64,000 nt of DNA from contig OX597819.1 of assembly GCA_951406725.2 (NCBI GenBank), positions 106,888,001 to 106,952,000 on the forward strand, given 5' to 3'. A program made the translations under genes and the position numbers. Below, in pieces: positions 10,275 to 61,748 of this stretch; within the stretch, counting starts at the first letter, position 1, and every line of letters starts with the position of its first letter. The notes under the pieces are model-generated. The model did no database searches, was not told the DNA's origin, and saw only the letters and a list, made by a program, of their open reading frames with translations. The DNA comes from Octopus vulgaris (taxonomy: Eukaryota).

Positions 10275-11429
10275 TCATACTTCTGAGTACCTAGTAGCCT
10301 GGGTTGACACCAGCTGCAATTGGCCGACATCTGTAGCAATGAAAGATCTGAAAAATATTCTGATGAATGTCTCTCTAAACTGTTTACTCATTGTACAATA
10401 CAATACGAAGTTGATGCCGTTGTTAATGAGTGTGAGAATATCAAGGGTATCTCCCAAATATATGTAGTAATTCTTGAAGAAAGAGTTAAATGTTCCAATC
10501 AAAATAAATATACCATGTGGGGTTTCTGTTATAAGGAACAGCACTACAACTGTCAGTAACATCTTGGTAGTTCGATTAGTTTTCCTTTCTCGACCGCTAT
10601 CGTCATCTGTTCTGCCACTTCGACTTAACAGCCTCTTCCGTCTTATCTCGACCTCTTGCATGGTTTTCACAAGTAATATACTCAAAATTGTCAAGAGTAA
10701 GCTTGGTAACAGCTTAAGGATAAATGCATGCACCCAAAAGTTCATCTTCTTGAGAATTCTCTCAGCTTCATTATTCTCCCTGAAATCAACATACCACATT
10801 GTTGAATTATGTCCTGCATTGCACTTGATTTCTAACGTTGCACTATTAGGAACACATACTATAGTGGTAACTACGGTCACTAGAATTACTGCCAGTTTAG
10901 CTCTTGGTATACTGCACAAATAGGTGCCTTTGCGTGGATACCTAATGAAAATGTACCGGAATAGAGCCAATGTAACTGTCAACCAAATTGAAATGGAATG
11001 TACAACAACGCTACATACAGCGTAGGCAAATAAAAAGCGGGCATCACCAATACTGTCACGACTCTCCGGAGAATCTGGTCCATAGATGACATAATTGTTT
11101 AAAGCAAATGGGAAGTAGAGTGCCATTGTAAGTCCATCGCTAATGGCCAGTCCAGTCAGGATTATATTTGACGGAGAAATCATGTTTTTTCTTGTCAATA
11201 CAATAATGTTGAGAATATTCGTGATGACTCCAAATATGCAAACGATGGAAGCTACGTAGCCATGAATGCCTGCGTACCAGTAGTGGTAAGCCATTAATAA
11301 ATTATTTGTATCAAGAGGTAATTCATCTTCTGTTATGTTAGTGGCATTATCATAGAAAAGGATCTGCGTTGAATTATCTTCACTAAACATGTCTGATGGA
11401 TACATCGGAGAATGTGTTATGGCCGACAT
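10275..11429 (-). CDS. Class A (rhodopsin-like) neuropeptide GPCR, myosuppressin/DmsR/FMRFamide/sex-peptide-receptor-like; ~384 aa, single coding exon
   Basis: Uninterrupted ORF with 7 hydrophobic segments. Motifs: TM1 GIHGYVASIVCIFGVITNILNIIVLTRKNM, TM2 LAISD, TM3 HSISIWLTVTLALFRY (DRY position = FRY), TM5 KLLPSLLLTILS, TM6 RTTKMLLTVVVLFLITETP, TM7 INNGINFVLYCTMSKQFRETF. N-terminal N-glycosylation sequons NST, NAT, NIT. The first in-frame ATG (MSAITH) is at 11427-11429; the ORF-track start at 11465 is a GTG. Confidence 0.93.
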   Translation of the reverse strand: MSAITHSPMYPSDMFSEDNSTQILFYDNATNITEDELPLDTNNLLMAYHYWYAGIHGYVASIVCIFGVITNILNIIVLTRKNMISPSNIILTGLAISDGLTMALYFPFALNNYVIYGPDSPESRDSIGDARFLFAYAVCSVVVHSISIWLTVTLALFRYIFIRYPRKGTYLCSIPRAKLAVILVTVVTTIVCVPNSATLEIKCNAGHNSTMWYVDFRENNEAERILKKMNFWVHAFILKLLPSLLLTILSILLVKTMQEVEIRRKRLLSRSGRTDDDSGRERKTNRTTKMLLTVVVLFLITETPHGIFILIGTFNSFFKNYYIYLGDTLDILTLINNGINFVLYCTMSKQFRETFIRIFFRSFIATDVGQLQLVSTQATRYSEV

Positions 11430-11618
11430 AATTTCTTGATGGATGTTTTTTCTTAGAGTTATCACGCTTCTATCTCTTTCCTAATTTTCTTCGTGTCGCC
11501 AACAAACTTTTCTCTTTTCTTTTGGATATTTATATAAATACCAAGTTATTTTGCGATATATTTCCATGTGCAGAATGTCATATTGGCTGGAGGTTTTTAC
11601 TTGCTTTCATCAAGATAA

Positions 11619-13504: not shown

Positions 13505-13548
<44 letters not shown>

Positions 13549-13910
13549 TTCAAAGGACATACTAGGTATGTCAACCTGCTCGAAATAACAGTCAAAACTC
13601 TTATTAACTCGCCAAAAATACACCGATGAAAACTACAGAAATTAAACGAAGGCAAAATCAGGTTAAGACAATCTACAGGTTGGGGGTCTCTAATAATGGT
13701 AACACGTGCTGAAGAAGCTAAGGTTTTATTTTACCAATGCAGAAATCGATCTACGTGAGTCCAAATACTTAAATGTATGTTAGTAGATTGTCTTAACCTG
13801 ATTTTGCCTTCGTTTAATTTCTGTAGTTTTCATCGGTGTATTTTTGGCGATTTAATAAGAGTTTTGACTGTTATTTCGAGCAGGTTGACATACCTAGTAT
13901 GTCATTTGAT
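13549..13910. mobile_element. Foldback element: ~128-bp inverted repeats with a hammerhead-containing spacer (PLE pLTR-like)
   Basis: 13549-13676 is the near-perfect reverse complement of 13783-13910. The spacer carries CTGAAGA...GAAATCGATC. Confidence 0.85.
13703..13757 (+). ncRNA. Type I hammerhead ribozyme motif, stem II partly degenerate
   Basis: CACGTG-CTGAAGA-agc taa ggt..acc aat gca-GAAA-TCGA-TC-TACGTG. Stem I CACGTG/TACGTG, palindromic stem III ATCGAT, AUC cleavage triplet. Confidence 0.6.
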
Positions 13911-14024
13911 TAATTTAATCCCTTGGCTATTTAATGCTATCGCTTGTGTCATTGATTCTGTTATTATCATTTTAAAAATTGTTGCATTGGATAATAATAG
14001 AATTAATGACACCTTCGTAAATTA

Positions 14025-14071
<47 letters not shown>

Positions 14072-21099: not shown

Positions 21100-22967
<1,868 letters not shown>

Positions 22968-31561: not shown

Positions 31562-33342
31562 TTGTATGTACGCAAGTTTGTATGTATACATAACAATTTC
31601 ATATTTCTTAATTGCCCTGTATATTTACAAAGGATCATTTCACATTGGGCCTTAAACATTCTAATACTATAATAACAATAATATAGTATTACAGCGATAT
31701 AAACTAGTTTATGAATATTGTAATTTTCCTTACAAAATTAGATTTTATTGAGAAGGAAGTGCTCTCAAAGCTGACGTTACATCGTCATTGCCTGAGTGAA
31801 GACAACATTTGATATCGCGATATGTTCCGTTTTGATGTCATTGTTAAAATATTTGGCAGCTCACAAGTCAGAGTCAATGTTATTCACTGTAATCTAATGA
31901 GGTCAGCTATGAAAGTGAATATATATTCAAGCATTCACAGTGTAATGATTACATTGCACAATGGATGCTTAAATACCAACTTGGTTACATTTTAGAATTT
32001 ATTGAGTACTCAAGTGACACAGAAAGATATCTCCAGATGTTCTCCTCCTCAAATATAGAATATGTTTGCCCTGTATTCATAGCTTAACGATATCATTTAC
32101 TCTATTTTACAATTTCAAATGTGTAAACCAGGATCGGTTTTATTTTTCATCCTTTCAGAGTGGCTAAAACCAATTTGTATGGATGACAAAGATCTAATAC
32201 ATCAACGTTTTCCTCTTCTGAAATCTCTTGTCTTATGTTTATATAAATAGTTGTATCCTCTAAATTTGATGGAAATACCAGCCAAATTTCTTTAAAGTCT
32301 TACCCTACATTTTTATTTAAATGAAGAGAACATTGGACAATTCAGTGCTTTCACTATTTTTTACGCGTCTCAGTAGTCCTGATCAGATATAGACACACTT
32401 TCGTCCCTTCACTCTTTACCTATGGGAACATCGAGGATATGAGAAAACATTGCTCCAGTATTCGTCTGTTTCATAATTACAGCTCAAAATAGACGGGAAC
32501 AAAAAAGAAATGTATTGATTTCATTATAGGCTCAAGTGACTACCTTAAAATTGATCAACGAACTTATTACCCGGAGTCGAAGATTAAGCCACACGCTTCC
32601 AAGTCTCAGGAAGTATGAAACATTATTAAAAACGACTAATTGAAAGATATGCTAGAAATATGTGGATCTCCTAAATCTAATAAATTCGTTTCAATGCTAT
32701 ATTTCCCAGTACCGTGTACCTGTCAAAGGCTTCTAGAGACATGACGTTCTAATAATTGTTGTAATGATATCAAATTGGAAAAGATGACTTTCTTATGAAG
32801 CACTAACAATTCAATTTCAAAACTAAAAAGCTGATTTATGTTTGTGATGAAGATTAGAAAGCTTACGAGCATGAGGTAAACAATAAGAAATTGATCTATA
32901 GTTTAATAGTAAGACATTGATAAGTATTTGTCAAGAAACCCTATATATGTATGTACGGATGTCAGTTATATTTCAAGATTTCTTATTAATAGAGAAAGGG
33001 CCAGTTTCTAACGTAGATTCAGGGTATTTTGTATGTATGTATGTATGTATGTATGTATGTATGTATATATGTATGTATGTATTTAATTTTTATGCTCTAC
33101 AATGACTTGATTCCGAAACGTACGTCCGTAGGTAACTTAATATAGAATGATTTCAGTCATTTCTTTCTCTTTTGCCTGCGTCGTTTGTTTTTTAAGTGCT
33201 TTGGTTTTACTGGGATCCCCCTTTTAAGTAGAAATAATAGCCAAAACTTTTTGACTGCTATTTCTAAATTCGGTGTGTGGTGAGGCATATCGTTGCTGAA
33301 CCCTTAAGTAATTAATACATATATATATATAATTAAAATAAA

Positions 33343-33488
33343 CAACAAGAATAACGTCGGTAATTTGGGACGATCGTTTCACGCTACATTATTTTATTAA
33401 ATATTGTAACTGTTGTAATATTTACAATATTTAATAAAATGATGTAGCGTGAAACGATCATACCAAATTACCGAAATTATTCTTGTTG
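33343..33488. repeat. Imperfect ~67-bp-arm palindrome
   Basis: 33343-33409 vs 33422-33488 (GATCGTTTCACGCTACAT / ATGTAGCGTGAAACGATC). Confidence 0.8.
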
Positions 33489-34016
33489 CTTATTTTGATT
33501 ATAATCACCACATGGATTTATATGGATAACACCGGTATTTCGACTGTGTGTGTCACAAATCCGTATGTATGTATGTATTATATATGTAATTATGTATGTA
33601 TGTATGTATGTATGTATGCATGTATGTATACATGTATGTATAGTCAAACTAGGTTCTACAGGGAAGCTATTTGTGGTAACAAGCAATTCAATGAGATATA
33701 GTGCGCAATCTCTGCAACCACAGTAAGGCATTACTGAGGTGGTTGATTTACACTATGTAAAAACCTATGGTGGGTGGGGGGGGGGGGTAAAATCTCACTA
33801 CTTACCTCCCAAAATAAGGAAATAAGGGCCTAGATACATATAATACAGTTCAAGGAAAAAATTCTATTCCTCAAGCTACCAGGACTTGAAGAATAGAGGT
33901 GAGAATTATATAAGAGAAATATATAATAATACATTTATAATAATAAAGGGTAAAAATTATTAATGATTTTCACCAGGTGGTCAGCGTCGAAATAAAAACC
34001 TCATAAGTAAAATTTA

Positions 34017-34407
34017 CAAATATTTTATAATTATATACATAATTATAACAAGGGCTTGACTTGCGCCTCACCACGCACTGAAAAAATAGACGTCAAATGA
34101 CACTATTACTACCATAAATTCCCCGAGAATAACACACCACATAATAGGCTAGCAAAAGAAAAGAAAATGAATTAAAATTTTCGGTTAACCGCGTACAAGA
34201 TCCTGTTTCCAGCTTAAAGTAAAAAAAATATTACCTATTGCTTTCAACTGGAAACAAGGTCTTGTACGCTGTTAACCGTTATGTGGTGTGCAATTTTCGG
34301 AGAATTTATGATGGTAATAGTGTCTTTTGACGTCTATTTTTCAGTGCGTGGTGGGGAGCAGGCCAATCACTTGTTATAATTATGTATATAATTATAAAAT
34401 ATTTATA
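34017..34407. mobile_element. ~390-bp foldback (MITE-like or inverted pLTR) element
   Basis: Left half (ATAATTATATACATAATTATAACAAG..CACCACGCACTGAAAAAATAGACGTCAAA..GCGTACAAGA..TGTTTCCAG) is the reverse complement of the right half. Confidence 0.8.
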
Positions 34408-34619
34408 ATCATACACTTATATAATTGTAATTATATAAAAGCGAAAGTGCGAGAGGAGGACTGAAATAATGAAAGGGAAAGAAAGGAAACTGTAGATACG
34501 TCAAATACTATGAAAATATAACGTACGATGTAAAATAATGGCGTGGATTTTAGAACTATAAGCTGGATAAAGTATAGTATGAGAAAAAGTGAATGAAAAA
34601 AAGCGCGTGTGGATTAACC

Positions 34620-36503: not shown

Positions 36504-37370
36504 AACAGGGTGCGGTGAATAAATTATCGTCTAAATTACACAAAATTTTAAAAGAACACTAACATCTCATTTTAACAGATATATTTACCAAAGTTACATT
36601 AAAATATCTTGAAATACTAAAGAATACATTTATTCAATAAAATTGCCATAGGCTTCATCCACAGCCTACAGACGATTTCGGAATCTCCTGCAACTTTTCT
36701 GGATGGTCTCCTTGTTTAGGTTGGTGAATGCTGCCTTCAGTTCATCTTTGGTGTTACAAGGAATTTTGTTGGTCTCTCGCCTACCTGCGCCGCACACATA
36801 ATAATAAAGGGAATTTGCAGTCTTGGGAGTTAGGTGGCCAGATGTTAGGCGTGATGTGATCGCAGAAATTGTTTGACAGCCATGACTGGAGTCACTTGCT
36901 TTTGTGGCTTGGTACAGAGTCCTGTTGCCAGACATAGGGTCTTCCAACAGTTGAGTCTGAGACCGTGTGGGAAGATGAATGGAGGCATAACAGTATCACC
37001 ACTAGTGTTCACTCTGAACATCATAATGTTGACTAGATTTTTGATATTTATAATCTCAGATTTTTATCATTCCTCAGAGTAACACCCAAATATTCTGAAA
37101 TATTCATATTGGAGCTCCGGCACGAATGCACAACAGCAAAGCATGTCGTTTCCAAATTTCTGGCAGAGTGACTTGCGTCATGGCGGTTTTTTTCTCACAG
37201 ACGGTACCCAAAACGAAGACATTTGAAATATACCCCCGAATATAATTGATAGAACTGTATGCATGTTATTTATCGGGAGGACATCATGTGTATAGTTCTG
37301 TAAATTATATTTTCTATGACAGTCACACTGAGGATCTGCAGACATTTACGCAATGTAAATGGTAACAATG
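36504..37370 (-). mobile_element. Degraded IS630/Tc1/mariner transposon
   Basis: TIR-like CAGGGTGCGGTGAATAAATT after (TA)n. Minus-strand transposase remnants: WPPNS..C..LYYYVCG, PCNTKDELKAAFTNLNKETIQKSCRRFRNRL. Confidence 0.75.
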
Positions 37371-37552
37371 AAACCATGGTATGTGACTAATCACTTAATT
37401 TTGTATCTTTTCATTTGTCTTGCTCACTTAGAATTCTCGCGATTTGCTGAATTTTCTTAAAAACAATTTTCTTAGTGGTCAGACCATATGTGGTCGACAT
37501 CTAGCATATAGGAATCCACCTAGTGGCCATTCCTCTTATATGCATGTAATAT

Positions 37553-38084: not shown

Positions 38085-39480
38085 GAATATAATGCTGAAA
38101 GATTTTAAAGGCCAAACAATGCAAATAGATTTTAAGATGAGGTAACGTAAAATAAAACTGATGAAGTGATGATAAGCATATCATCTATGTATCTAATGAA
38201 GAAAACACAAGAGTGACAGCAGCTGAGTGCTCGACGTTCTAGAAACATAATGATATACTTATCATCACTTCATCACGCGAAGAGGCCGACAAAATATCCA
38301 CGACATTCTCAAGAATAGATAGTAACATAAGATTTATCACGGAACACTCCGATAAAGATGGTACTTTATCTCTACTAGACTTCCAACTTAAAATAACAAA
38401 CGGAGGTAATATATACACCAACTTCTATCAGAAAGCTGCCAGAAGAGAACTGTTTGCGAATTATAGGTCAGCCCTACCCCTCGGTGCTAAAACAAGATAC
38501 TAAGAAATGAACTAGCACGCCTCAAGAATAAATGTAGCAAAGTTGAGGACCAGAGTACTCACACTGCACACTTCACAGATATACTGAGGCTGAATGGATA
38601 CCCAACATCCACAATAAACTGAATTAAAAATCAAAAGCGCCGCAGACATAAGTCCTTCTGTAACACCTGCTTTATGAAATTACCACATTTCAATGAAAGC
38701 ATAACCACAGCAATTCGTAGAGTCATGTTCAACGAAGAACTAGACATATAATTATCACACTCCGTCCCCTCACTGCGCGGATACCTGAATAAAAAGCAAT
38801 CTAGAGACAGCAATCAATGCTCATTAACTCACTGTCCCATCCACGATACAGGTATGTGCCAGCGGACACATGTAGTATACCGAATAGAATACAACAAATG
38901 TAAGGCGTTTTATATAGGCAGCACAACTCGAACTTTGCATACTTCCATTAAGGAGCATCTCAACACACGCGCATCCTCATTCAAAAAACACATTGATAAA
39001 TGTAAAAGTGCCAACAAACAAATAAATATTACTATTGAAGCCAATGATAGAAATCTCAGCAGCTTAAGAATTAAGGAAGCTTTGATTATATATTAATTAA
39101 GCCCACAAATAAATAATAGATTGGAGCTAGGCACGCAATACATAACATCACACACACACACAGAGGCACATTTGCTACATATTAGAAAAGAGGTGATGAA
39201 AATTGATTTGTTGAGCGATAAGTTAATAATTGACGTCACTAACATTCACGAAGAAGAGAAACACTTGAAAATTCAAATATTATCATAGAATTATTTTATC
39301 TCCGACAAAAAAACATCTTACCAAGCACAGTTCCTTTTTAACCCTGAAGAAGGGACTTGTATATCCCGAAATATTGGATACATATAAGACCAAAGATTAC
39401 CATGTAACTTACTTTTAGTTTACGTTACCTCATCTTAAAATTTATTTGCCTTGTTTGGCCTTTAAAATCTTTCAACAATA
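38085..39480 (+). mobile_element. 5'-truncated Penelope-like element with inverted partial pLTR and hammerhead
   Basis: RT thumb remnants (LSLLDFQL..NFYQK, LRLNGYP) and GIY-YIG ORF 38854..39096 (VVYRIEYNKCKAFYIGSTTRTLHTSIKEH..IKEALII, P.IN). ~38090-38150 is the reverse complement of ~39415-39475. Confidence 0.88.
39339..39380 (+). ncRNA. Minimal PLE hammerhead motif
   Basis: TAACC-CTGAAGA-A-GGGA-cttgtata-TCCC-GAAA-TA-T-T-GGATA, located in the 3' pLTR of the PLE. Confidence 0.7.
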
Positions 39481-49395: not shown

Positions 49396-49404
49396 TATTA
49401 TATA

Positions 49405-49581
49405 ATTTACGTTATTTACATTTGACGGATATATGTCCTCATCTTGTTTGTTGTTAAAAACTTTTCGACTGATATACCCTCCATGCTTCATCAGTTGTCT
49501 TGAGGAAATTTCGAACCAGGTTTCTCATTCTTAAGGTATTTGCCGATGTTGTTGTTGTTGTCGTTGTTGATGTTGTTGTTG

Positions 49582-49671
<90 letters not shown>

Positions 49672-49805
49672 TGGTCACTGCTTGGAATCGAACTCGGAAT
49701 CTTGGGGTTAATATCCCGCGCCCTTAACCATTACGCCATATGGCGTCGTGGTTAAGCGCGCGGGCTACTAACCTCAAGATTCCGAGTTCGATTCCAGGCA
49801 GATAC

Positions 49806-49863
<58 letters not shown>

Positions 49864-50050
49864 GCAACAACATCGAAAACTACTTCTAGAATGAGAACCC
49901 TGGTTCGAAATTTTCCCCAAGACACCTGATGAAGGCTGGAGGGTATATCAGCCGAAACGTTGTGTTAACAAACAAGATGAGAACAAATATCCGTCAAATG
50001 TAAATAATGTAAATAATGCACATAATTCCTCATAACCATAAATATAGAAC
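49405..50050. mobile_element. Head-to-head inverted pair of a tRNA-headed element with a hammerhead-bearing PLE-like tail
   Basis: Palindrome centred at 49739/49740 (GCCATATGGC). Each arm has a tRNA-like head (A-box TGGCGTCGTGG, B-box GAGTTCGATTCC), then (AAT)n, a unique body, a hammerhead and a TGTAAATAA tail. Confidence 0.85.
49921..49966 (+). ncRNA. Minimal type I hammerhead motif (decayed mirror copy on minus strand ~49453-49500)
   Basis: GACAC-CTGATGA-A-GGCTG-gagggtatat-CAGCC-GAAA-CG-T-T-GTGTT. Confidence 0.8.
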
Positions 50051-55039: not shown

Positions 55040-56346
55040 ATAAATGAGAGGAAATGGAATGAACGACATACTTTATTTAAAAACCACTGCAATTGTTTCG
55101 CCATCACAACTTTCTCTATCATTGTCACTGAGACGGTCACACGCTACACACCCTCCTTTCAAGCAACTGTGCGTAGGCCTCTGAACAAGTATCATGTTCA
55201 GACACCTACGGAAAGTTGCAAAAAATGTATGGAGAGAAGTCTATGAGCCGTACACAAGTGTACGAGTGGTTCAGACGTTTCCAAGATGGCCGACGAAATG
55301 TCGATATTGACGAACGTTGTGGGAGACCTGCAACCAGCAAAACTGAGAAAAGTATTGCAGATATGCGTGCAGATGTGATGGGTAATCGTCGAATCACCAC
55401 CCGTGAGTTATCAGAGGATGTGCAAATTAGTTACGATTCAGTTCAGTCCATTATCACTGACGATTTCGATATAAGATGCGTGTCCATACATTGGGGTTTC
55501 AGTTGCATAAAATCTCCTTGATTGCGTCAAAAATGATGAACACGTTTTAAAATTTACTTAGGCCTCTGAGGACGTATCGCCAAACCTTTGGCACAATTTG
55601 ATATATTGGGTTGTCCAGAAAGTTCGTACCGATTTATAGTAGCTTACCTTTCGACTTATTTTAGAACGTGTTTCATTCCATAAAATAGGATTTGACTACA
55701 CCTCCATTTAGAGCACAGTTTAAGCTATATATTCGTGGAAGGTTTATGTTCCTATAACTTGTGTTAATTCTGTAACCCTTTAAAATGGAAGATAAGAAAG
55801 TTCATTTTTGGCACTCGGTGCTTTGGGAACCAGACAAAAATTGCTGCAGCTCGGCTGGGATGTGTTACCCGACCCTCCATATTCACCAGATATTGCTCCT
55901 TAGGGTTTCCGCTTATTGAGGTCTCTGCAGAATAGTCTTACTGGTAAAAACTTTAATTCCTTGCTTGACGTTAAAAGATATCTTGATGGATTCTTTGCCA
56001 TAAACCACCTCAATTCTGGGAAGAGGGTATTTTCAAATTAAAGGAAAAATGAAGACGCATTATGCAACAACATGGTTCATATTTAGTTGATTAAAAATGT
56101 AATGGCAAGTATTTATTACCTTTTTCTTTCCTTTAAAAATCGGCACGAATTTGCCGGACAACCCAAAAGATTCTCTGCTCAAAGTTCTCTGTCATGGTTA
56201 GTGTCGTGATCATACGCAACACACCTTCCTTCCAACTCAAATAAGCAGAATTGAGGTAAAACACTAGACAACAAAGCAGCTTCATTCTGCGTGCATTAGA
56301 GACTAGTTACTATAGAAATAGTCCCAATACTTATTGATCGGACCAC

Positions 56347-56349
<3 letters not shown>
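55040..56349. mobile_element. Rearranged mariner remnants (mixed orientation) interrupted by a nested mariner MITE
   Basis: ORF 55216..55521(+) KMYGEKSMSRTQVYEWFRRFQDGR..DERCGRP..RRITTRELSE is a mariner HTH region. The minus-strand 5' end MTENFEQR|IKLCQRFGDT is split by the insert. TIR-like TACGTGGTCCGATCAATAAGTATTGGGACT ends at ~56349. Confidence 0.75.
55606..56166 (+). mobile_element. Internally deleted mariner (MITE-like) with TIRs
   Basis: TTGGGTTGTCCAGAAAGTTCGTACCGATTT / AAATCGGCACGAATTTGCCGGACAACCCAA, with TA on the left. Internal GWDVLP.PPYSPDIAP motif. Confidence 0.88.
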
Positions 56350-56413
<64 letters not shown>

Positions 56414-56414
56414 T

Positions 56415-56720
56415 GGCATTATTACACATACATGCCACACGCTAAGAGGGACATTAGTCATTTCTACCAAAAAATTTTACTAATCATACCCAATGCAATT
56501 TTTCAAAGCAAGACATTTAAAAGACGTTTATTTATGATATGTTCAGAATCAGTCTTGCTGATGAGTACGGTCGCAACTGCGGTAAGTACGAAATCACAGG
56601 TGATACAAGACTAAATTCATTTTTTAAATGTCTTGCTTTGAAAAATTGCATTGGGTAAAATTTTTTGGTAGAAATGACTAATGTCCCTCTTAGCGTGTGG
56701 CATGTATGTGTAATAATGCC
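56415..56720. mobile_element. Foldback element: ~100-bp inverted repeats with a canonical hammerhead in the spacer
   Basis: 56415-56522 is the reverse complement of 56622-56720 apart from one ~9-nt indel. It lies between microsatellite/TA-rich flanks. Confidence 0.9.
56551..56612 (+). ncRNA. Canonical type I hammerhead ribozyme
   Basis: AGTCTTG-CTGATGA-GTAC-ggtcgcaactgcggtaa-GTAC-GAAA-TCAC-ag-GTGA-T-A-CAAGACT. Stem I is 7 bp, the core is intact, and stems II and III are complete. Predicted cleavage is after A56605 (AUA). Confidence 0.88.
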
Positions 56721-56853
56721 CTCTATATATAAATTAATATGTTCAATAAGAAAGAATTATTTTCGAAATTTTTCTCTTATGAGGTTTTTCACGCTATCTA
56801 CCTGATAATTTCTTCTTAAGATTCCTTATTAAGAAGTTATCGTTAATTGTTAA

Positions 56854-56904
<51 letters not shown>

Positions 56905-57394
56905 CATACAACATCCTATACTGGACGAGGTTACTTCATTTTAGCCCCAGGAAAACATCTTCTCCAGCAGGGTACCGACACATGGTCTGTAGTAACATCG
57001 ACCTTTGTAGTACTGCCACATTGTGTTGGCAAAGAGATTTTACCTGTTCGGTACTGTTAATACGTATTTCTCTCTCAGTGACTTAAAACTATTAATCTTT
57101 TTGTCATGAGCAAGGACGAGTGATTGTCCGGTGATTCTCCTGTACCGCAGAAGGGGGTCGAAGAGCGTAGGCTCGAAACATTACAGACTATTTCACTTCC
57201 CGAGTGTTAAACTAATAAATCAGTTTGTTGTCTACAACACCTGTCTTAGTATTTTGCTTTTTTGTGAATTCTCCCTATATATATATATGTGTGTGTGCGT
57301 GTGCGTGTGTGTGTGTGTATGTGTGTGTACACATATGCATGCATGTATCTATCTATGCATAGTATGAATGTATAAAACTACGTTACCCTTATAG

Positions 57395-60787: not shown

Positions 60788-61202
60788 TTTATATATATAT
60801 GGAAGGGATGTTTGTGTAGTAACTTGTAAGTACCCCAATACCTCACAAGAGAACATGATTCATATATCTAAATATTTAAACTTACTTGCGTTCGTTTCAA
60901 GAATGTCAAGAAATGTGAAAAGAAAGTCAGAAGGTAGGCCGAGATTCACGTCAGCAACTAGAGCAGAAAAAATTATACCATTTACTAATCGCATGTAAGG
61001 TTCAAGGTTTACATACATATATGCAGATACAGGTATTATATATATATATATATATAATTCATGTTTACAGAAAACAAAAGACGATGATAGTTGTAGGATG
61101 AACAAGCAGGTGTATTAGTTTAAAGCACAGGAAGAATGAAAAAATCTTTTCTTTGACACAAAGGATTAAGAGGAGAGAGAAGGAGAAAAAAAACGGAATA
61201 TA

Positions 61203-61735
61203 CAGGGTGTCCCAAAAATCACTATATACTTTTTTCTATTTCGTTTCATGCATCATCCGGTGAGAAGGGAGGCCATCAGCATTTGACATCGTAGACTTCG
61301 CAACTTTTGTAAGTGTATCATTCCCTTGCCCTTGGCACACCATACCACCAGATTCGGAGAGACTCACTGATGTTCGAAAATTTATGCTGGTTTTGATTTT
61401 CGCCAAATTCAACACTTGTGTCGGTGTACCCGTCCAGAGAGGTGAAAGACTCATCTCTGAACCATTTTGGCAATGTTAGAGGAGTGATTCACACATTTAC
61501 ACACGAGCATCACTTGCAATGAACTGCAGTAGGACAATGAAAAAATTCTTTCCAGGTGGCAATTTTGCAAGGCTGCTTTAATGTCAATTGGCAAGCCATG
61601 GGCAAGGAAATGATACATTTACACAAACTGCAAAGTCTAAGGTGTCAAATGCTGATGGCCTCACGTCTCTCTGTATGATACTTGAAAATGAAATTAAAAA
61701 AAAAGAAATTGTATAGTGACTTTCGGGGCACCCTG
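61203..61735. mobile_element. Tc1/mariner-type MITE
   Basis: TA|CAGGGTGTCCCAAAAATCACTATA ... TATAGTGACTTTCGGGGCACCCTG|TA, plus internal inverted segments (GGCCATCAGCATTTGACA / TGTCAAATGCTGATGGCC). Confidence 0.88.
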
Positions 61736-61748
61736 TATATATATATAT

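Follow-up and report, generated by a model that had tools for sequence, protein, structure and literature searches.

A hammerhead motif in the loop of a 99-bp hairpin of Octopus vulgaris: probable head-to-head insertion of a Penelope-like repeat

Layout of the locus and anatomy of the hammerhead

The 64-kb stretch of Octopus vulgaris DNA analysed here (GCA_951406725.2, contig OX597819.1; the window) contains a hammerhead motif and a 99-bp hairpin, both of which are genuinely present in the sequence (Table 1). Along the locus, a (TA/GA)n tract is followed by an inverted truncated copy, a forward copy (56525 to ~56858) with the hammerhead, and a (TA)n tract. The left arm of the hairpin (56415-56522) comprises 108 nt and the right arm (56622-56720) 99 nt. 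Upon alignment, the paired positions proved to be identical at 99 of 99 sites, and the remaining 9 nt of the left arm form a bulge. The hairpin loop (56523-56621) also has 99 nt. These data bear out the near-identical enclosing inverted repeats and the hairpin of ~100 bp reported in a first-pass annotation of this DNA. The hairpin folds with -182.1 kcal/mol (z -24).

The right arm carries a 9-nt deletion with 3-nt direct repeats on either side. Because other copies of the family have these 9 nt, the deletion is private to this arm. The arm terminates at the base of a small stem-loop (56699-56720), and a 12-bp stem-loop is found close to the end of the 56721-56858 extension. In the window, (TA)n runs are frequent: 76 were counted, and 10% of random 300-nt segments lie within 45 nt of such a run. 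Therefore, the TA flanks are supporting, not decisive. The locus has no notable coding frame, in agreement with the earlier annotation: the sole listed reading frame over the element passes through the flanking microsatellite. About 900 nt upstream of the hairpin, a fragment of a mariner transposase (Mos1-type HTH; PF17906, E 6e-8) is encoded at 55177-55521 (+); no link between the two was seen.

Table 1. Features of the hairpin locus (positions in the window)
Feature	Positions	Strand	Evidence or remark
Left flank, (TA)15, AA, (GA)16, TAT; likely microsatellite target site	56348..56414	.	sequence
Inverted 5'-truncated copy of the downstream part (= 56622-56720), retains the 9 nt of the family	56415..56522	-	alignment, contigs
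Head-to-head junction, 2 nt, unlike the upstream letters of other copies	56523..56524	.	alignment, contigs
Family sequence 5' of the ribozyme; the forward copy starts here, 33 nt upstream of C3	56525..56550	+	contigs
Type I hammerhead ribozyme motif	56551..56612	+	sequence, descriptor, folding; predicted cut after A56605
Stem I, AGTCTTG / CAAGACT	56551-57 / 56606-12		7 bp
Hammerhead core CTGATGA	56558-64
Stem II, GTAC / GTAC, plus inner helix	56565-68 / 56586-89		spans 56565-89
Hammerhead GAAA	56590-93
Stem III	56593-56604		palindromic
Right arm, usual downstream family sequence	56622..56720	+	alignment, contigs
Second copy of the stem I 5' strand (GTCTTGC)	56630..56636	+	partition-function folding, predicted only
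One-sided 3' extension, 138 nt, high-copy	56721..56858	+	alignment, contigs, folding
Right flank, (TA)n	56859..56897	.	sequence

The motif at 56551-56612 displays the attributes of a type I hammerhead: a CUGANGA core, GAAA, an NUH cleavage triplet, stems I to III and an open end at stem I. The 7-bp stem I, the CUGAUGA core, GAAA and the GTAC/GTAC stem II with its inner helix, for which folding yielded pair probabilities of 0.84-1.0, were all located as annotated. The cleavage triplet is AUA, and its position agrees with the cut that was predicted after A56605. A strict type I descriptor has a single match on both strands of the window, 56551-56612, and 0 of 200 dinucleotide-shuffled windows contained any match. 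At the gathering score, Rfam yielded no match for the hammerhead region; the best sub-threshold match was RAGATH-1-hammerhead with 16.5 bits compared to the 56.3 bits of the gathering score (E 4.3).

The repeat family and its neighbours in the window

Part of the 306 bases of the hairpin was found in 20 of the 24 public sequencing runs listed (8 studies, three organism labels, none recorded as RNA). Four runs (X1, X2, X4 and X5) were aligned on 56480-56860, a region with one full arm, and contained 1099, 65, 1190 and 44 matching contigs, respectively. Of 2410 pieces and 173 loose ends, 32 and 24, respectively, were inspected individually. The summed depth is ~1e5 on the spacer 56525-56550 and up to 6e5-8e5 downstream (X1, X4); it is not equivalent to copy number, and contigs of a repeat family may be mosaics of several copies. 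The hammerhead repeat is a high-copy family that occurs under three organism labels. It is not single-copy, the outcome that the first-pass annotation had named as speaking against its proposal. The description as young, multicopy, non-coding and retro-mobile stands as well: the arms have 0 substitutions, and exact matches to the hammerhead are found in contigs of other runs.

Contig 25 of X5 comprises 56525-56611 with 0 differences and 69 unrelated letters upstream. The matches of X2 contig 9 (exact, 56525-56639, 115 nt) and X1 contig 1 likewise end at 56525, and five X1 contigs have loose ends there. Since the X5, X2 and X1 contigs diverge upstream of 56525, the ribozyme occurs without the left arm. 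The upstream sequence of this linear form was sought in the window at 3 mismatches, with 0 matches.

On the other side, position 56720 is marked neither by a collapse of depth nor by common ends tabulated in the contigs of the four runs. Six listed pieces cross it (X2 11, 12 and 13; X4 21; X5 28 and 29). Among them, X2 contig 13 (56713-56767) reaches a depth of 427, whereas the contig with the exact hammerhead has ~10. Out of 2410 pieces, 32 are listed, and none of these has at least 31 letters on both sides of 56720; with 30 and 33 letters, the best one narrowly misses this strict bridging rule. The originally proposed element of ~305 bp in total does not agree with these boundaries, as the family sequence passes 56720 and other copies differ upstream of 56525.

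In the contig alignment no joints were tabulated, and the junction of the locus itself is spanned by none of the 32 listed pieces. In X1, a loose end that precedes 56755 corresponds to the spacer 56525-56547 in reverse complement, with 20 of 23 letters matching on visual comparison, and includes 7 letters from upstream. This single contig therefore suggests a second head-to-head junction with another breakpoint. Contig 29 of X5 starts at 56691 after a simple-repeat flank, as expected of a 5'-truncated copy. Altogether, 5' ends were observed at 56525, 56622 and 56691 (X5), plus one at 56755, in a few pieces that do not amount to a census.

The 9 nt deleted in the right arm are retained in the family, as seen from loose ends at 56656 (X1, X4) and an insertion at 56654 (X5). 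An extra T at 56681 is present in 92% of the X1 depth (120,542/131,562) and absent from both arms, which are therefore derived from one template. In X1, X2 and X4, G prevails over A at 56608 (A56608G); with it, stem I stays paired as U-G. The variable stem II confounds a step in depth on the immediate 3' side of the cut site. Loose ends in X1, X2 and X4 suggest that the small terminal stem-loop unit (56698-56720, ~22 nt) is present in tandem in some family copies.

Pattern scans for the hammerhead and the 3' extension yielded 0 loci in metagenome and viral contigs, which is uninformative for an animal repeat. Neither a described family nor a hammerhead displayed in such a loop was found in full-text literature searches, and supplementary repeat libraries may contain the family. 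The main text of a recent octopus repeat annotation does not mention ribozymes according to a term search (PMC13282606).

The window harbours further foldbacks and hammerheads. The foldback at 13544-14028 (+) is unrelated in sequence to 56415-56858 and equal in layout: (TA)n, a 133-bp arm, a 106-nt loop, the second arm, a 113-nt extension and (TA)n. Its loop contains a decayed minimal hammerhead (core 13709) with a broken stem II, and the forward copy begins 32 nt before the core compared to 33 nt at 56525. At the 13544 and 33328 foldbacks, the left microsatellite adjoins the arm start, as judged from the flank letters. Two foldbacks, 33328-33503 and 61198-61740, lack a hammerhead; the TA-flanked ends of the latter resemble those of a Tc1/mariner-type element. 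The foldback 34014-34408, part of 33971-34408 (-), is followed by a stretch weakly similar to the core of the 3' extension (nhmmer E 0.07). At 49402-50017, an inverted pair of a repeat end with a minimal hammerhead (core 49926) encloses (TTG)n/(TTA)n tracts as well as a tRNA-like segment that is palindromic (49678-49801).

Minimal type I hammerheads are also located at 37318-37375 (hit at 37328) and 39340-39385 (hit at 39344), both on the plus strand. The second one lies ~250 nt downstream of the frame 38752-39096, which has a GIY-YIG match (PF01541, E 6.5e-4). Another GIY-YIG match is found at 21790-22200 (E 0.006). Both are below the Pfam cut-off and represent remnants of endonucleases of the type encoded by Penelope-like elements (PLEs). 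On the minus strand, 23001-20524 comprises a PLE-like ORF with a weak GIY-YIG match, a simple-repeat spacer and then a decayed minimal hammerhead (~21150). It is accompanied by a nested foldback (21035-20736) with 25-nt direct repeat flanks. Beyond this foldback, 20652-20523 is 86% like the 56721-56858 extension. This stretch may be a shared 3' module, and the 23001-20524 PLE a candidate autonomous partner. The related hammerhead remnant at 57157 does not have this module. The sole host gene noted in the window is an intact single-exon frame for a 401-aa GPCR of the rhodopsin family (10275-11480, minus strand; PF10324, E 2e-41).

Predicted folding of the ribozyme

The ribozyme was folded alone, in linear forms, in the foldback and as two molecules; the energies disregard Mg2+ and tertiary contacts. 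As proposed in the first-pass annotation, the strands of stem III, ATCAC/GTGAT, are present, but they enclose only 2 nt. Therefore, stem III of a monomer has at most 4 bp, and a 5-bp monomer stem is impossible. The stem III 12-mer is a palindrome with a hairpin energy of 0.0 and a self-duplex energy of -11.2 kcal/mol, and a sister form with a 1-nt centre is represented by loose ends in X2 and X4. Across five of five contexts folded, the pair probability of stem III was 0.02-0.06. The catalytic monomer fold lies 2.1 kcal/mol over the minimum in both the isolated motif and the foldback, and 4.4-5.9 kcal/mol over it in linear forms. In the two-molecule fold, the double hammerhead reaches -42.6 kcal/mol compared to -35.6 kcal/mol for two monomer minima, a gap of 7 kcal/mol. 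The unconstrained co-fold minimum (-43.4 kcal/mol) has stems identical to those of the double hammerhead.

Consequently, the view that the motif, unlike PLE hammerheads, folds as a monomer is weakened: four base pairs are possible, but stem III is palindromic and the dimer is predicted to be favoured. For metazoan and PLE hammerheads, palindromic helices III and action as dimers have been described (PMC4209133). According to the folding model, the ribozyme is predicted to cut better paired than alone, and most likely the family ribozyme would cleave in its double form, within tandem transcripts or between paired ones.

The sequence GTCTTGC occurs twice, at 56552-58 and 56630-36. In linear RNA, the second copy is predicted to capture the 3' strand of stem I with a probability of 0.73-0.99 once it has been transcribed, and stem I itself has a probability of 0.00-0.09 (0.04 in linear single-copy RNA). 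In the foldback, the left arm is predicted initially to trap the 5' strand of stem I (0.99-1.0). Past 56636, the left arm would pair with the second GTCTTGC, and stem I would be released to 0.56. This computed release is partial because stem III stays at 0.02. Three cases, the 56525-56858 locus, 13677 and one X1 contig, share a 5' start 32-40 nt before the core. It is conceivable, albeit improbable, that the downstream GUCUUG (18 nt 3' of the ribozyme) acts as an off-switch which a head-to-head insertion turns on. Foldbacks would then be self-nicking long dsRNAs that PLE insertion remakes repeatedly with this fixed 5' start and that might spread as a separate hairpin subfamily.

Origin of the hairpin and comparison with known systems

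The locus is probably one recent insertion of a high-copy PLE repeat, composed of two 5'-truncated copies head to head, and the hairpin a by-product of the insertion. Published PLE insertions (PMC8557442) often have a 5'-truncated copy in inverted orientation next to their 5' end and a tail at just one side, and they favour microsatellites. Head-to-head is described as the commonest inverted form of PLEs and has been explained by self-priming (PMC3846280). Features of EN+ Penelope-like insertions recur here: an inverted 5'-truncated copy adjoins the 5' end of the forward copy, the repeated part contains a hammerhead with a palindromic helix III, and (TA)n microsatellite, the likely target, is found on both sides.

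In the proposed mechanism, a PLE reverse transcriptase/GIY-YIG endonuclease would act in trans and cut the (TA)n tract. On both cut strands, cDNA would be primed; its synthesis would begin at two sites within the family RNA, ~56858 and 56720, each located at or just 3' of a stem-loop. The first cDNA would extend from ~56858 through the uncleaved ribozyme to 56525. The second would run from 56720 to 56622 and halt 17 nt before reaching the position of the ribozyme cut. Joining of both cDNA ends would yield the hairpin; a self-priming fold-back would have the same product. The ribozyme sits in the loop because the inverted copy halts downstream of it. We infer the mobilising enzyme, since no PLE coding sequence is linked to the family in the data: the locus has no ORF for an RT or GIY-YIG protein, and the upstream sequence of the linear form was viewed over 30 letters. 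A ribozyme cut as determinant of the inner end of the inverted arm was considered and rejected; it fits the ends 17 and ~31 nt downstream, but not the X1 junction (150 nt).

At the locus, a cut would do no more than open the loop that the 99-bp duplex closes. Since one hammerhead can only nick the loop, no unit-length or circular RNA would be released. Strand exchange between two closed loops would presumably be hard, so that, if the plus strand is transcribed, only the weaker monomer fold would be open to this copy.

Alternatively, although this is unlikely, a linear hammerhead copy might have been there first and the left arm might have been added later or separately by local inverted duplication in DNA repair. 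Such an event would be in line with arms that have private variants in common and 0 substitutions. An assembly error is a less likely form of the same explanation. Both gain from the observations that none of the listed contigs (32 of 2410) spans the junction and that the best run contains only 0.71 of 21 sampled words. However, the 9-nt deletion by which the arms differ argues against an artefact of mirrored reads, and the equal layout at 13544-14028 and the other breakpoint in the X1 contig speak against this explanation. In addition, the literature describes head-to-head junctions as a hallmark of PLE insertions (PMC8557442, PMC3846280).

Still less credit is given to a DNA transposon (MITE or Mutator/foldback) with terminal inverted repeats of ~100 bp that captured the hammerhead and inserted into a TA tract. 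TA-targeting Mutator-like families exist (PMC4486113), the arms are long and near-perfect, and with the (GA)n run included, the outermost letters of the element are GAG...CTC. The sequence TATATATAAA is present on both sides (56370-79 and 56724-33), but the second TATATATAAA is family-internal sequence in high-depth contigs. Furthermore, arm sequence continues into 56721-56858 in other copies, and there are hammerhead copies without the left arm. Among the contigs inspected (32 of 2410), the arrangement of a MITE, with inverted repeats as both termini, ends shared by the copies and a target duplication, was thus not found.

The rod-like retrozyme- or viroid-like unit that the first-pass annotation had proposed, i.e. 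a foldback that itself moves or replicates as a rod-like RNA able to cleave as a monomer, has the least chance: the core is intact, the family is young and high-copy, and the active monomer fold is closer to the minimum in the foldback (+2.1 kcal/mol) than in the linear form (4.4-5.9), but retrozymes, as defined in the literature, need tandem units with at least two ribozymes (10.64898/2026.07.22.740005; PMC7229834), the locus has one unit whose single nick leaves both halves joined by 99 bp, no second copy of the junction is present among the listed contigs (32 of 2410), the hairpin is not the structure of the family, and the layout is that of a PLE head-to-head insertion.

Read as a head-to-head PLE insertion, the locus would be the smallest form of this type, young and with an intact hammerhead: an ordinary but clean example. 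The architecture is an already known PLE pattern; the hammerhead family was not found described. Hammerhead-in-a-rod structures of animal genomes can be insertion scars and not viroid-like units. Moreover, the locus offers a compact test set (linear vs. foldback vs. dimer) for the role and control of hammerhead cleavage in PLEs.

With head-to-head insertions of EN+ PLEs (Craig et al., 2021, PMC8557442; Arkhipova et al., 2013, PMC3846280), the locus shares the adjacent inverted truncated copy, the one-sided extension, the TA-microsatellite flanks and a type I hammerhead in the repeat. Unlike the insertions described there, it comprises ~440 bp in all, has no ORF, and its inverted copy halts 3' of the ribozyme, which is thereby placed in the loop. 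The extension has 138 nt instead of the 30-40-nt tail of the published insertions, and a clear target duplication is not seen here.

Metazoan type I and PLE hammerheads, as described by Cervera and De la Pena (2014, PMC4209133), have the type I topology and the G10.1-C11.1 pair in common with the octopus motif. The palindromic helix III and the action as a dimer, which is predicted here, are also alike. The palindrome differs in length: it has 5+2+5 nt here, whereas helix III of those hammerheads usually comprises 1-2 bp. Stem II of the octopus motif is long and variable, and a loop-loop contact was not recognised.

Animal non-LTR retrozymes (Cervera and De la Pena, 2020, PMC7229834) are likewise non-coding and high-copy and have a type I hammerhead. 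Their unit of a few hundred bases and their probable derivation from PLEs are further similarities, and solo copies are known among them (PMC7229834; Li, Clavereau and Pollet, 2026). In contrast to them, the locus has one ribozyme and no tandem units, and its long hairpin results from inverted duplication and not from the fold of the unit itself. No tail-to-head joint was tabulated in the contig alignment; tandem arrays may exist elsewhere.

Poseidon PAc of Anolis (Frangieh et al., 2024, PMC11167929) comes close to the mechanism suggested above. Its protein is reported to cut and extend both strands of AT-rich DNA, to start reverse transcription near a stem-loop, at two sites within the RNA, and to use mainly uncleaved RNA as template, as we infer for the octopus repeat. 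Poseidon PAc is autonomous, a distance of 30-40 nt separates its two start sites, and its ORF begins inside the ribozyme. In the octopus hammerhead, by contrast, the ATG of the core meets an in-frame stop at 56612-14.
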